Source of the DNA: an uncultured Eubacteriales bacterium
Lineage (GTDB): Bacteria > Bacillota > Clostridia > Oscillospirales > CAG-272
Length of the DNA stretch: 64,000 bases
Direction of reading: 5' to 3'
Assembly: GCA_905187695.1 (NCBI GenBank)
Contig: CAJJIY010000001.1
Coordinates: 6,831-70,830, forward strand
Position numbers and translations under genes: made by a program. The notes beneath the pieces were generated by a model. It saw nothing but the letters and a program-made list of their open reading frames with translations. It was not told the DNA's origin and ran no database searches. Positions 49,441-64,000 of the stretch are shown here, piece by piece. Every line of letters begins with the position of its first letter. Within the stretch, counting starts at the first letter, position 1.

Positions 49441-49632
49441 ATGGATACGAATTGCAATAAGGATTACTGCGGTTGCGAGCATGTAAATGACGGCATCAGT
49501 TGCGATGTAAAAAATTGCCTTTATCACGAAGGAGACTGCCATTGCACAGCCGATCAGATTGCGGTAGGACCCAGCTTTGCCACTTCCAGCACAGATACCG
49601 TGTGCGCCACTTTTAAACCTAAAAAGAACTGA
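49441..49632 (+). CDS. DUF1540-like Cys/His-rich small protein
   Basis: ORF 49354..49632 trimmed to ATG 49441 behind GAGGAG. ISCDVKNCLYHEGDCHCTADQIAVG resembles the DUF1540 repeat found in small sporulation-associated proteins. Confidence 0.72.
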   Translation: MDTNCNKDYCGCEHVNDGISCDVKNCLYHEGDCHCTADQIAVGPSFATSSTDTVCATFKPKKN

Positions 49633-57162: not shown

Positions 57163-57435
57163 TCAGTTACTTTTTTGTGCGCGCTGTTTTTGATATTTCC
57201 GTTTGGTTGCCTCGCCGCCACGCAGATGCCGCTCCTCCTTGTTTTTTTGCAGAATAGTCTGCACGGCCGCAAACAGCGGTCCGTTTATAAGGCGCAATTC
57301 AACCGTCACATCTTTGTGAACCGTACTTTTGCTGATTCCAAAACGGCCGGCCGTTTCCCGAACGGTCGCGCCATGTTCTATAATGTATTGTCCGAGAATT
57401 TCCGCTCTGCTTCGCTCTTCTTCAAAATAATGCAT
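57163..57435 (-). CDS. spoIIID: sporulation transcriptional regulator SpoIIID
   Basis: ORF 57163..57468 trimmed to ATG 57435. HTH ATVRETAGRFGISKSTVHKDVT and basic region RHLRGGEATKRKY match SpoIIID closely. Confidence 0.92.
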   Translation of the reverse strand: MHYFEEERSRAEILGQYIIEHGATVRETAGRFGISKSTVHKDVTVELRLINGPLFAAVQTILQKNKEERHLRGGEATKRKYQKQRAQKSN

Positions 57436-57540
57436 TTCGTCGCTCGCTCTCTGTTGAAATTTCGGCATTTATCTGATATAATTGAATCAGAAATTATCAC
57501 TACATCTTATGCAAAAATCTTGAAAGGCAGAACTGTAAAA

Positions 57541-58314
57541 ATGAATTCGGAAAAAGAAGCCGCCGCATCCTTTTGCGTCATGGAAGGAATGACCTCCGTT
57601 TCTTCCCTGCTTGCCGCCACCGCTCAAAACATCAATGACCGCAAAATTCATGAAATTCTTTTTGATAAAGAAATGAAAGACAAAAAAAGGCGGATTTTTA
57701 CTTTTCTTCTTTCGGAATGTAAAAAGCGGGAGATTCCGCTTCGCCTTTGCCTACGAAGCGAGATTGATTCCGTTTCCACAGGCAACACGCACGGCGGCGT
57801 GGCCGCGATTTGCGGTGACCGCTCTCTCTTGCCTCTTTCTGACGAAAATTTTCCCCACGACGCGTTTTTATGTTATTTGGACGGCATTGAAGACCCTTAC
57901 AACTTCGGCTATACCATCCGTTCGTTATACGCGGCCGGGTGCAACGGTATTTTGCTGAGCGAGCGAAACTGGATGAGTGCCGCGGGGGTAGTGGCCAGGG
58001 CTTCTGCCGGAACATCGGAAGCAATTCCGATGTATGGCGCGGGAAATGGTGTAAATGCGCTTTCTCTTCTGAAATCGGCCGGTTATCGTGTGATTACAGC
58101 CGGCATCCGGAATTCGGTGCCTTATATGACGGCAACTCTCAAGAAGCCGTTGGTTCTGGTGGTTGGCGGAGAAAAGCGGGGGATTTCAGCCGCTGTCAAT
58201 GCCCTTTCTGACCAGGTGGTCCGAATTCCTTATGGCCGCGATTTCCGCGGTTCTCTGCCAACGGCGTCTGCCAGCGCGGTCATCGGATTTGAAATTCTTC
58301 GTCAAAACTCATAA
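57541..58314 (+). CDS. TrmH/SpoU family RNA 2'-O-methyltransferase (RlmB-like)
   Basis: ORF 57175..58314 trimmed to ATG 57541, because the upstream part is antisense to spoIIID. NFGYTIRSLYAAGCNGILLS, LVVGGEKRGIS, IPYGRDFRGSLPTASASAVIGFE. Confidence 0.85.
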   Translation: MNSEKEAAASFCVMEGMTSVSSLLAATAQNINDRKIHEILFDKEMKDKKRRIFTFLLSECKKREIPLRLCLRSEIDSVSTGNTHGGVAAICGDRSLLPLSDENFPHDAFLCYLDGIEDPYNFGYTIRSLYAAGCNGILLSERNWMSAAGVVARASAGTSEAIPMYGAGNGVNALSLLKSAGYRVITAGIRNSVPYMTATLKKPLVLVVGGEKRGISAAVNALSDQVVRIPYGRDFRGSLPTASASAVIGFEILRQNS

Positions 58315-60825: not shown

Positions 60826-60829
60826 TACC

Positions 60830-60865
60830 ACCGGCCCGAAAGTACGCTTTCGGGCCGGTATTTTT
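60830..60865. terminator. bidirectional terminator between the AraC gene and the Cys-rich gene
   Basis: ACCGGCCCGAAAG, loop TACG, CTTTCGGGCCGGT, then TATTTTT. Confidence 0.85.
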
Positions 60866-60875
60866 CAGGATTTTG

Positions 60876-61718
60876 TTACGAATTGCCACCGCAGCATTTT
60901 CCGCCCCGCGGCGAAGGACCTGCAGGAGGAACAGCGCCGGCAGAAAACTCAGACACCGGGAACGGGATCTGGCGGAAGGTGCTGCACGGATCTTCCTCAC
61001 CCGGAGGGGTGCATTCTTTATCGGGAATGCTGTACTCAACGCCCTGAACCAGAAGCTGACCTTCACGCACCAAACGAATAACCGAGAAAAGGCCCAGCGA
61101 TATGGCCAGATATCGGCGCCCCGTATCGTCATCGTCCGCATCCACCAGTGTACCGTCCAAGCGCTCGGTTACCGAAGTGGGCAGGTCGCAGCAGCAGCAA
61201 CAGCAACGGCAATCACGCCGTCTTTCCACCACACGCGCACCCAGCACAATCGGATCGACTACTTCCACAACCGCTTCCGGCAAATTTCTCTGTCCGGTAA
61301 TCGGCTCGGGCAGAGCGCAGAAATTGCCGTTCCCTTGACTGCGGAAAATGTTCACATTGCTTTCGCCGCCGAAAAGAACCACGCGTTTTTCCAGCACGGC
61401 AATGCCGTCAAATTCTTGAGTCTGACCGATCGGCAGGCAGGCTTCGCAGTTGCAGCGCACATAAAAACGAATGAGAACCGTGTAAAAACCGCGGTTGAAC
61501 TGAACGGGATCCACCGCGATATTGGCCCCGATAATTTCCGCGCTCTTCACACGGACATTACCGTTACGCAAAAGCATATCATCGCCGATTCCCGTCAAAA
61601 ATACCCGTTGATCTTCAAAACAATCCCTGTCCCGGCAAGCGTCCAGAATCCGACCGGTTTCGATGCCGAAGGTGTCTCTGGACGGGGAGCCCCCGCAGGA
61701 AAATCTGTTATCACTCAT
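60876..61718 (-). CDS. cysteine-rich hypothetical protein (18 Cys; candidate spore-coat-type protein)
   Basis: AAGGAGG SD 8 nt before ATG 61718. It has its own bidirectional terminator at 60830-60865. Contains RDCRCCCCCCD (Cys codons at 61188-61205), VRCNCEAC and C-terminal GGKCCGGNS. The equally long + strand ORF 60873..61739 lacks an SD and looks like a shadow. Confidence 0.65.
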   Translation of the reverse strand: MSDNRFSCGGSPSRDTFGIETGRILDACRDRDCFEDQRVFLTGIGDDMLLRNGNVRVKSAEIIGANIAVDPVQFNRGFYTVLIRFYVRCNCEACLPIGQTQEFDGIAVLEKRVVLFGGESNVNIFRSQGNGNFCALPEPITGQRNLPEAVVEVVDPIVLGARVVERRRDCRCCCCCCDLPTSVTERLDGTLVDADDDDTGRRYLAISLGLFSVIRLVREGQLLVQGVEYSIPDKECTPPGEEDPCSTFRQIPFPVSEFSAGAVPPAGPSPRGGKCCGGNS

Positions 61719-61771
61719 AGGGAAAAGATTCCTCCTTGATATATTCAGAGCACAGAAGGGCTCTTCCCTAT

Positions 61772-61780
61772 TATCTTATG
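61772..61780 (-). promoter_or_regulatory. possible mother-cell (sigma-E/K type) -10 element upstream of the Cys-rich gene
   Basis: The - strand reads CATAAGATA, matching the CATA-N3-TA form, about 45 nt upstream of the SD. The -35 is not convincing. Confidence 0.3.
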
Positions 61781-61810
61781 CAATTTTACGGATTTTGACA
61801 ATTTCGGCCT

Positions 61811-64000
61811 TTATTCTTCCTTGCTGAAAACGCAGCGGTAAGGATTTGGAAAAAACACGCGGTATTCCGCCGTTTCGGGCATAAACGGCAGACAACGCTT
61901 TGAGGCCACAAGGATGGTTTGCGTTTCTTTCCCGGTAGAAAAATGGATCCGTTCTTTTGGGCGGGGGCCATGTGCCCCAAGAATGAAGAGTTCCGCGCCT
62001 ATCTCTCTTTCCGGCATTCCCAGGTGAGAGCGGTATTCCGAAAGCGCACAGCTTTCGTATCGGATTTCATGCGGGCCGTATGCCAGTGTAAAAGATACGG
62101 TAGGCTGTGTGGAACGGCTTTCATAAAGCGGTGCGTCAAAAGTGAGGCGACCGTCATAGAAAATCTTTTGGTCAAGGCCGAAAGAATAAAGCGAAATTGT
62201 GACCCCGTGCAGCGCCGCTTTCTGGCGCAACAAATCCAGATATACTTTATCGGACTGTGTAACCGGTTCGGGTACCCACAAATTTCTGACCAGTACCATT
62301 CCGGCGAAACGGTCAAAAGCGTTGACGGCAGATTTATGATAATGTGTGAGCAACAGCACCGAAACCTCTGTCGCCCCGTCTTCACTGGCCAATTCATAGT
62401 CGGCGTAAAGCTGCGCCACACTCGTTGCGGAAATATCCACGATCACGGTTCCCGCCGGATGACGCAGGATAATTCCCTCGTTTGTGCCGAAAAGCCGATA
62501 GGAAAAAGTCAGATCATTCCGATGAATCCTGTTGCAGATCGGAAAAGAAAAACACAATGCCGCAACGCACAAAACAGCCGGCAACGGAACCAGCCATTTT
62601 CTTTTCTTCAGATCCGGAATAAGTAAAAGAAAAGTCAGAAACAGTCCCGGAAGCAAAATAAATTTTGTATACGCCGGCCGTAACGACACAACCGCAGGTA
62701 ACATTGCCAGTTTCCCGGAAAGCCAAAGCACAAAACCGGAAAGTTTTCCCGCCGCAAAGGCAAAAGGCGCCACCGGAAAGCAAAAAAGAGCGAGTAGTGC
62801 AAGCACCAATAAAAACGACGCCAGCGGCACAAAAATAAGATTGGAAACCGGCGTGAGGAGCGACAACTCGCCGAAATTGAAAAAGATGACCGGCAAAATG
62901 GCCACAGTTGCAGAAAAAGTGAGAACAAACGAAGAAAGAATCCATCGCACAATGGCAAAAATGATTCCGGGAAAGCCCTTGCGCACCGGAATCAAAGCCT
63001 TGCATTTTTTGTTGATAGAGGAAAATACAAGAATACCGAAAGTGGAAAGCACCGTCATTTGAAAAGAAAGACTTTGTAAAGCAAATGGCCAGATCAGTAA
63101 AATCACCGCGGCGCCGAAAAGGAGAGATGTCACGGCATCAATATCGCTTTTTGCAAAAAAGGACAGATAAAAAACCGAAAGCATCAGCACGGCGCGCAAA
63201 GTTGAAAATCCGCATCCGGTCATGATGAGATAGGAAAAGGCAAAGAAAAGCGTTATCGGAATCCGGATCTTTTTGGAGACTCGCAACATCCGGAGCAATT
63301 GATCGACTGCCGCTGACAAAATACTCAGATGCAGACCGCTGAGCGCCAGCAGGTGCGAAATGCCGATCCGCCGGAAATCCCGGACCGTCGTGTCCGAGAG
63401 AAACTCTTTGGTTCCCAGCAAAAGTGCGGAAAGCAAATTTCCCTCTTCGCCCGGAACCGATTGCCGCAAAGAGTAAGAGAGACGGTCACGCATAAATTTA
63501 ATGCGTGAAAGAAAAGATCGGCTTCCGCTTTCGATCGGAACAAAAGGCGCGGATCCTTCTGCGACGAATAAGCATTGTGCTCCCAACGAGGTGTAATATT
63601 TTTCCCGACCGCTATATCGGTTCTCAAAAGAAAGTTCCTGTCTGGTGGCATGACAGGAAAGCCGGTCTCCTTCCCGCAGAGCATGCCCGGCTTCACTTCT
63701 CAGAATCGCGCCAAGTTCGGTTTTCTGGCCGCCGACCGTATTGACCTTGACCAGAACCTCTTCGTAATAACTGCCTGATGAAAGCACTTCGCGGACCGTA
63801 AAGGTCATTTCCGTCATTTCTCCGACCGAAACCGGGCATTTCTCTGATTTCCGGACCTCCGTTCCGCCACGGAAAAATCCAAGCGAAGATCCAAGAAAAA
63901 AGAGCGCAATAAATAAAAAACAATATCCTTTTTTGAGGGAGCGGAAGGAAAGGACAAGAAAAGCGGCAAAGAAAAAGAAGAAAAGCAACGAAAAAAGCAA
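61811..64000 (-). CDS. comEC: DNA internalization competence protein ComEC/Rec2 (N-terminus at or beyond window edge)
   Basis: Polytopic competence domain (ISHLLALSGLHLSIL). C-terminal metallo-beta-lactamase-like domain with degenerate motif LLLTHYHKSA. The ORF is open to position 64000. Confidence 0.87.
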   Translation of the reverse strand: MLFSLLFFFFFAAFLVLSFRSLKKGYCFLFIALFFLGSSLGFFRGGTEVRKSEKCPVSVGEMTEMTFTVREVLSSGSYYEEVLVKVNTVGGQKTELGAILRSEAGHALREGDRLSCHATRQELSFENRYSGREKYYTSLGAQCLFVAEGSAPFVPIESGSRSFLSRIKFMRDRLSYSLRQSVPGEEGNLLSALLLGTKEFLSDTTVRDFRRIGISHLLALSGLHLSILSAAVDQLLRMLRVSKKIRIPITLFFAFSYLIMTGCGFSTLRAVLMLSVFYLSFFAKSDIDAVTSLLFGAAVILLIWPFALQSLSFQMTVLSTFGILVFSSINKKCKALIPVRKGFPGIIFAIVRWILSSFVLTFSATVAILPVIFFNFGELSLLTPVSNLIFVPLASFLLVLALLALFCFPVAPFAFAAGKLSGFVLWLSGKLAMLPAVVSLRPAYTKFILLPGLFLTFLLLIPDLKKRKWLVPLPAVLCVAALCFSFPICNRIHRNDLTFSYRLFGTNEGIILRHPAGTVIVDISATSVAQLYADYELASEDGATEVSVLLLTHYHKSAVNAFDRFAGMVLVRNLWVPEPVTQSDKVYLDLLRQKAALHGVTISLYSFGLDQKIFYDGRLTFDAPLYESRSTQPTVSFTLAYGPHEIRYESCALSEYRSHLGMPEREIGAELFILGAHGPRPKERIHFSTGKETQTILVASKRCLPFMPETAEYRVFFPNPYRCVFSKEE

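Follow-up and report, generated by a model that had tools for sequence, protein, structure and literature searches.

We analysed a 64,000-nucleotide stretch of DNA from an uncultured Eubacteriales bacterium (assembly GCA_905187695.1, contig CAJJIY010000001.1, positions 6,831 to 70,830; hereafter the window) and focused on a minus-strand gene at window positions 60876-61718 that encodes a Cys-rich protein of 280 amino acids (aa). Its product is probably a divergent CsxA-family protein, one of the Cys-rich proteins that self-assemble into crystalline, disulfide-cross-linked sheets of the clostridial spore envelope. CsxA of Clostridium sporogenes (299 aa, 25 Cys), known from the C. sporogenes/C. 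botulinum group I exosporium, assembles on its own to form the hexagonal exosporium basal layer, its lattice cross-links are reducible but need harsh reducing conditions for dissociation, and a ΔcsxA phenotype has been reported (PMC7333573; bioRxiv 10.64898/2026.09.03.749163). Hexagonal two-dimensional crystals and a basal-layer role are known for C. sporogenes CsxA alone.

The relationship to CsxA was detected by several comparisons, based on the CsxA sequence given in the PMC4942563 supplement. A profile of 84 diverse members of the window protein's family (A2) aligned to CsxA in hhalign with a probability of 97.9% (E = 6.3e-13, 219 columns), spanning profile positions 16-262 and CsxA residues 24-260, and to an alignment of 24 CsxA relatives (A3) with a probability of 99.05% (E = 2e-18, 211 columns). 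The window protein itself matched CsxA by BLASTP on the C-terminal block (E = 1e-5). When the hidden Markov model (HMM) of A3 was searched against all six-frame open reading frames (ORFs) of the window with hmmsearch, the 60876-61718 ORF was the sole match (E = 3e-8); no second CsxA-like ORF was found in the window with the HMM of CsxA relatives. As controls, we compared proteins with related roles or folds. The CdeC sequence, validated at 570.7 bits against NCBIfam NF052417, aligned to A2 with a probability of 1% and over a 12-residue motif only, and a relationship to CdeC was rejected. A sequence-level relation to CsxC or to the SpoVID N-domain was likewise rejected (probabilities of 0.05% and 0.17%, respectively). 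Together, the hhalign, BLASTP and HMM matches and these negative controls argue for membership in the CsxA family. The gene and its associated features are listed below.

60876-61718, minus strand: coding sequence, 280 aa with 18 Cys, ATG start, divergent CsxA-family protein (ORF list, homologues and profile comparison)
61620-61652, minus strand: N-terminal signature RILDACRDRDC, residues 23-33, aligned to KVFDQCLRKEC of CsxA (alignments A1 and A2; hhalign)
61188-61211, minus strand: Cys cluster C-R-CCCCCC, residues 170-177, with runs of 3-8 Cys in the clade (hhalign column placement, run-length distribution)
60957-61109, minus strand: C-terminal conserved block LAISLGLFSVIRLVREGQLLVQGVEYSIPDKEC..DPCSTFRQIPFP, residues 204-254, the strongest match to CsxA (ITLGLFIIIKCEIVVQLMVPAYGYCPVPEEC..DPCKEF) (BLASTP, hmmsearch, hhalign)
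61794-61800, minus strand: -35 element TGTCAAA, its C 16 nucleotides (nt) upstream of CATA, the sigma-K 'AC' position (orthologue conservation)
61769-61781, minus strand: -10 element GCATAAGATAATA, of the CATA-N3-TA form typical of mother-cell sigma-E/K, with CATAAGATA at 61772-61780 (footprinting)
61747-61764, minus strand: leader stem-loop AGAGC...GCTCT, at about the expected transcription start (RNAfold on orthologous leaders)
61731-61737, minus strand: Shine-Dalgarno (SD) sequence AAGGAGG, 12 nt upstream of the ATG (GGAGG conserved in orthologues)
60829-60860, both strands: bidirectional intrinsic terminator with a 14-bp stem, 9 G-C pairs and T-runs on both strands

The Cys-bearing motifs of CsxA have aligned counterparts in the window family, namely the N-terminal CxxxxC strand, the central cluster and the C-terminal YC.P..EC...DPC, and three residues (C28, C33 and C245) reach 90% conservation or more among the 84 diverse members. 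Family alignments further define a conserved N-terminal strand motif, (E)AVCI.T.rIyDSCrDKDC.EDlrVy; the segments GFY.V and K.ViLfGsE; the central Cys cluster; and a conserved C-terminal block, VTLG.FSIVRLER..QLLIP.YDYC.P.KEC...DPC.lF...FP..EFFPP. An initial annotation of this DNA, made from the sequence alone, had described an ORF with a strong SD and its own terminator, a protein containing RDCRCCCCCCD, VRCNCEAC, an acidic DADDDD patch and a C-terminal GGKCCGGNS, and no signal peptide. All of these hold: the SD and hairpin are present as listed above, the poly-Cys stretch occupies residues 168-178, the other three motifs are present in the protein, and its N-terminus is, by inspection, not hydrophobic.

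The relation to the existing Pfam family is less direct. PF27077, whose name 'CsxA' is taken from the database record and on which a literature search found nothing, is not part of the Pfam library used for our direct scans, and its assignments are precomputed hits. The family is carried by all 87 proteins in the larger set of CsxA relatives and by 3 of 120 profile hits of the window's branch, the one of these that was looked up (P0372) being marked faint. No PF27077 hit is recorded for P0001, which is 99% identical to the window protein, nor for any of 120 close orthologues. On sequence grounds, the window protein is thus placed as a deep-branching CsxA-family member outside the current Pfam model, and its clade as a very large sister lineage that has diverged from CsxA and lies beyond the reach of PF27077. 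The initial annotation had called the family unrecognised; a family is in fact known, whereas the window clade itself falls below its threshold. Searches of Pfam, NCBIfam and PDB sequences with the window protein gave no family match; in NCBIfam, including NF052417, there were no hits at E ≤ 10. PF10612 (CotY/CotZ/ExsY) was matched neither by the query at E ≤ 10 nor by the 84 members at E ≤ 1, and a Pfam scan of those members returned scattered noise only. A sub-threshold Pfam match of the window protein to LINC-PINT was rejected as spurious low complexity. The comparison with CotY/CotZ and CdeC drawn in the initial annotation therefore stands as one between analogues and not between relatives.

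A homologue search and a check of phylogenetic distribution, both suggested in the initial annotation, revealed a large family, found mostly in Oscillospiraceae and other Clostridia among gut metagenome-assembled genomes (MAGs). A collection clustered at 90% identity contained 1643 homologues. The best 120 of these, which we used as the close-orthologue set, are full length, 53-99% identical, and called 'hypothetical protein' wherever a source names them. At 50% identity, the family comprises 800 clusters, 451 of them with E ≤ 1e-10. Relatives are encoded in at least 556 species-representative genomes, and the best 80 of these are all gut MAGs of uncultured Clostridia, Oscillospiraceae or Eubacteriales. 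In two cluster look-ups, nearly all members were metagenomic proteins, and the named members were from Clostridia; one family member comes from Candidatus Flavonifractor merdigallinarum.

To define the promoter and leader, we used the upstream regions of 78 orthologues. CATA-N3-T[AG] occurred within 110 nt of the start in 75 of the 78, compared with 7% of shuffles, so that the CATA-N3-TA -10 box proposed for the window gene in the initial annotation (CATAAGATA) proved to be both present and of a conserved form. The box usually starts 53-70 nt upstream of the orthologue start codons, and the spacer between the -35 and -10 elements is 15-17 nt in 73 of 78. Across the set, the consensus is TGTCAAA-N12-G-CATA-g-a-A-T-R-n-T-A-n-n-GAAGAG, in which each base of CATA, like the T at +7, occurs in 91-100% of sequences (C, 91%; A, 100%); a GTAACA subgroup of orthologues has a perfect AC-N16-CATA. 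Sigma-E and sigma-K share a common -10 box and differ in the -35 region (ATA vs AC) (Saujet et al. 2013, PMC3789822). Of the seven genuine csxA genes compared (Clostridium, Hathewaya and Haloimpatiens), six carry (ATC)AC(A)-N16/17-[CT]ATAnnnTA, located 57-81 nt upstream. When the window was scanned with a position weight matrix of the conserved promoter, the sole match was the site of the gene itself; the extended motif is specific to this gene and does not mark a general regulon. The window also contains spoIIID (57163-57468, minus strand; PF12116, 106.8 bits), as the initial annotation had noted. Its -10 box (GCATAAGATG at 57503-57512) is the same as that of the CsxA-like gene and its -35 region differs, providing a within-genome example of a mother-cell promoter. 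These sequence features suggest a promoter of the mother-cell type, most likely recognised by sigma-K rather than sigma-E. The earlier proposal of a mother-cell-expressed, Cys-rich coat or exosporium protein is supported by homology to CsxA, by a CATA promoter in both the orthologues and csxA, by the origin of the named members in Clostridia, by the presence of SpoIIID in the window and by the attribution of the opposite-strand ORF to codon usage (see below).

Directly after the -10 box, a stem-loop can form in nearly all orthologues. The 78 leaders had a mean minimum free energy of -8.1 kcal/mol in RNAfold, compared with -3.5 for shuffles, and native arm pairs were likewise more stable than chimeras made between orthologues (-8.1 vs -5.0), with 41 of 78 natives ranking in the best 10% of chimeras. 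The stem sequences themselves differ between orthologues (GAAGAGC/GCTCTTC, GGAAGAAAG/CTTTCTTCC, GAGAAAGC/GCTTTCTC). A gapless fixed-arm swap test for hairpin covariation gave a weak signal only. The element is probably a 5' hairpin that stabilises the mRNA.

An AlphaFold2 model (19 orthologues; mean pLDDT [predicted local distance difference test] of 69, pTM [predicted template modelling score] of 0.68) has a confident core of long beta-strands (residues 24-42, 55-71, 78-94, 100-116, 148-164 and 203-217) and disordered termini. CsxA has been modelled as an intertwined trimer of the SPOCS/DUF3794 fold (2026 preprint), and the predicted beta-rich core is compatible with that description. A Foldseek search of the model against the PDB, which holds no CsxA, CotE or SpoVID-N structures, gave no match at E ≤ 0.001, with all TM-scores below 0.2; given those missing structures, this negative is uninformative.

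The most distinctive part of the protein is its central loop. The six consecutive Cys codons (61188-61205) read TGC TGT TGC TGC TGC TGC, one further Cys codon lies at 61209-61211, and runs of at least four Cys arose in only 613 of 200,000 shuffles of the window protein (0.3%). In a single-sequence alignment, the loop CxCCCCCC falls where CsxA has its cluster CGGGCNCGCTC. Each of the 120 close orthologues has a longest run of 3-8 Cys (exactly 6 in 46 of them), compared with 1-4 and rarely 5-6 in the wider family, and at most 2 in CsxA relatives; within the CsxA family, runs of 3-8 consecutive Cys are unique to this Oscillospiraceae clade. By this comparison, the hexa-Cys run is best described as the CsxA Cys cluster expanded in this clade specifically. 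The loop pattern varies even in close orthologues (CRCCCNCC, CRCCCGCS, CCHCCCAA), and members of the wider family contain between 3 and 31 Cys in total. Such variation fits a cross-linking patch in which density matters, and not a defined metal site.

We considered whether the gene had been assigned to the right strand and the right expression programme. An ORF on the plus strand (60873-61739, 288 aa) covers the whole gene and is slightly longer, and the initial annotation had stated that its own reading would be refuted if this ORF proved to be the conserved or expressed one. The plus frame stays open in no more than 36 of 79 orthologues. At minus-frame codon positions 1, 2 and 3, differences to the 78 orthologues amount to 0.345, 0.24 and 0.60, respectively, a pattern that suits the minus frame; the most variable position would be position 1 of the plus frame. 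The plus-strand ORF exists because the minus-strand gene does not use the codons TTA, CTA and TCA, and it is the minus-strand gene to which the SD, promoter and terminator belong. The minus frame is the coding frame, the plus-strand ORF is a by-product of codon usage, and the chance that the latter is the real gene is negligible. Vegetative expression from a sigma-A promoter, with no role in sporulation, is also very improbable. A simple scan does read the same promoter DNA as TTGTCA-17-TAAGAT (9/12 matches), and no terminator separates the comEC stop codon (61811) from the promoter, so that some transcription from comEC could run on into the CsxA-like gene. The sigma-A reading is nevertheless unsatisfying because it leaves the invariant CA before TA unexplained: a sigma-A -10 element needs neither of these conserved bases. 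The first T of TTGTCA is found in only 47% of orthologues, the same -10 box precedes spoIIID of the same genome, the product shares homology with an exosporium protein, and sigG adjoins the CsxA-like gene in nine loci.

A more serious alternative, which we regard as possible though on balance unlikely, is that the protein belongs to the CsxA family and the spore envelope and has another job there, in a coat or crust layer, in an interspace or parasporal crystal, or as a morphogenetic scaffold. Such a shift would parallel the diversification of the SPOCS-fold proteins CsxC, CdeC, SipL and CotE, related folds that do different envelope jobs according to the literature, and the two tandem csxA paralogues of Clostridium estertheticum indicate that the family does diversify. 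Several points pull in this direction or weigh against a CsxA-like, cross-linked exosporium layer. Identity to CsxA is only ~20% and the window clade lies below the curated PF27077 threshold, so that function may have diverged. No ORF in the window contains a (G-x-x) repeat of at least eight units, that is, there is no collagen-like gene, and no BclA-type or glycosyltransferase genes neighbour the CsxA-like gene; in Clostridium, such collagen-like (BclA-type) and glycosyltransferase genes often, though not always, accompany csxA (exosporium literature). A literature search found no paper tying an exosporium to Oscillospiraceae. With 3-31 Cys across the wider family, heavy cross-linking is not universal. 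The -35 C is preceded by T in most orthologues (TC, not AC), the promoter DNA can be read for sigma-A as described above, and expression, localisation and assembly of this clade are predicted from sequence. Against a different job stand the full-length homology, the Cys clusters at equivalent places, the promoter type shared with csxA and the lack of another CsxA-like ORF in the window. We also weighed whether the poly-Cys loop and the invariant Cys bind metal (Fe-S, Zn or Cu-thiolate) in a metal-storage or redox protein, as the initial annotation had offered as an alternative. The CxCCCCCC loop and the terminal CC do look like metallothionein-like stretches, and C28, C33 and C245 are strongly conserved. 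This idea gained no support: the exact loop pattern is unconserved in close orthologues, runs are anywhere between 1 and 8 Cys long and total Cys varies as noted above, Pfam and NCBIfam searches (including the Pfam scan of the 84 members) matched no metal-binding family, and CsxA, to which the protein is homologous, plays a structural part in a lattice whose cross-links can be reduced. We consider it improbable. A variant of it, speculative and hardly less improbable, is that the 3-8-Cys run, instead of being just a denser disulfide zipper, nucleates multinuclear metal-thiolate clusters (Fe-S, Cu or Zn) where lattice subunits make contact. If so, these gut commensals would have a redox-active or metal-loaded spore surface, with a cross-linking chemistry unlike any described spore envelope.

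Our preferred reading, a CsxA-like envelope protein, suggests the following model. Late in sporulation, mother-cell RNA polymerase, carrying most likely sigma-K and less likely sigma-E, would transcribe the monocistronic gene from the TGTCAAA-N12-GCATAAGATA promoter. The leader stem-loop would probably stabilise the mRNA, and the strong SD would drive translation. The product, predicted to be cytoplasmic (no signal peptide, beta-rich core), would oligomerise around the forespore into a lattice. Its Cys clusters, namely the first-strand CxxxxC, the CxCCCCCC loop, the C-terminal KEC...DPC pair and the terminal CC, would then lock neighbouring subunits through cooperative disulfide formation. Homology to CsxA, conservation of the promoter, the coding strand and the ends of the transcript are established by the sequence data; we infer the timing of expression, self-assembly, disulfide cross-linking and envelope location, and the exosporium basal layer would be the most likely layer.

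Spore surfaces have hardly been characterised in gut Oscillospiraceae and related Clostridia, which are abundant and mostly uncultured. Our analysis puts forward a candidate major structural protein for the spore envelope of these gut Clostridia and suggests that hundreds of them may build a similar disulfide-locked envelope, which would extend the principle of a crystalline, Cys-cross-linked lattice beyond Clostridium sensu stricto. What it offers is an annotation for a family of 'hypothetical' proteins widespread in gut Clostridia; it reveals no new kind of system. The gene and its promoter motif could serve as a practical marker of sporulation and exosporium capacity in metagenomes. The Pfam CsxA model essentially misses an Oscillospiraceae-type branch of at least 1600 proteins, larger than the clade on which it was built, and a PF27077 model rebuilt from both branches would annotate these members. 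The poly-Cys loop may further represent a natural experiment in which Cys density tunes lattice cross-linking.

The genomic neighbourhood of the monocistronic CsxA-like gene varies between loci. Among 80 related loci, comEC lies upstream in 25 and a convergent AraC-type gene downstream in 31, the window being included in both counts, and 28 loci have clpX, clpP and tig on the downstream side. In the window, the terminator at 60829-60860 is common to the CsxA-like gene and the convergent AraC-family gene, and the comEC stop codon (61811-61813) lies only ~10 nt upstream of the -35 element (61800). In nine loci (L023, L026, L029, L035, L054, L056, L065, L068 and L071), sigG is found immediately upstream on the same strand (~73 nt upstream of the match), and the CsxA-like gene keeps its own CATA promoter in the short spacer. 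Elsewhere in the window, an ORF for a SpoU-type RNA methyltransferase (57175-58314, plus strand) shares ~290 nt with the oppositely oriented spoIIID. The methyltransferase domains begin only at residue 137 and the gene called in locus L087 is shorter; the true start probably lies further downstream. A small Cys/His-rich ORF found in a motif scan, MDTNCNKDYCGCEHVNDGISCDVKNCLYHEGDCHCTADQ... (49441-49632, plus strand), would correspond to the DUF1540 gene named in the initial annotation.

Two observations were made at csxA loci themselves. In C. estertheticum, the tandem paralogues (L083, 3001-3744 and 4019-4783) each have an AC-N16-GCATAnTATA promoter. In three Clostridium/Hathewaya loci (L083, 4938-5471; L084, 3946-4740; L090, 1324-1562), the next gene after csxA belongs to DUF4489 (PF14879); it may be a conserved csxA partner and is missing from the window.

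Compared with known systems, the window protein is closest to CsxA. The two align over ~210 columns, are of similar length (280 vs 299 aa) and Cys content (18 vs 25), share the N-terminal CxxxxC strand motif, the position of the central Cys cluster and the C-terminal block TLGLF...QL.VP.Y.YC.P..EC...DPC..F, and lack a signal peptide; both genes are monocistronic, with a CATA-type mother-cell promoter ~60-80 nt upstream. They differ in their low identity and in the sub-threshold position of the window clade in Pfam, in the runs of 3-8 consecutive Cys (vs at most 2 in CsxA relatives), in the C-terminus, where the window protein ends in CCGNS without the long acidic tail of CsxA, in the collagen-like, glycosyltransferase or DUF4489 neighbours that the window gene lacks, and in their hosts, which for the window clade are Oscillospiraceae-type gut Clostridia and not Clostridium sensu stricto. 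CdeC of C. difficile (NF052417) is likewise a Cys-rich, self-assembling protein of the spore surface with a morphogenetic role in the exosporium and a SPOCS-like predicted fold (2026 preprint). Its strand motif IEANRIFD resembles IETGRILD of the window protein; detectable homology does not extend past this 12-residue motif, and NF052417 is not matched. The Bacillus proteins ExsY, CotY and CotZ (PF10612) also form Cys-rich, hexagonal, disulfide-locked, self-assembling arrays on the spore surface, but are unrelated in fold and sequence (literature) and, given the lack of a Pfam match, are analogues rather than homologues. Finally, the SPOCS/DUF3794 proteins SipL (PF12673), SpoVID-N (PF20918), CotE (PF10628) and CsxC show no profile signal in the comparisons made with CsxC and SpoVID-N and no Pfam match among the 84 members, yet CsxA is reported to adopt this fold, and the AlphaFold2 model of the window protein is likewise built of long beta-strands.

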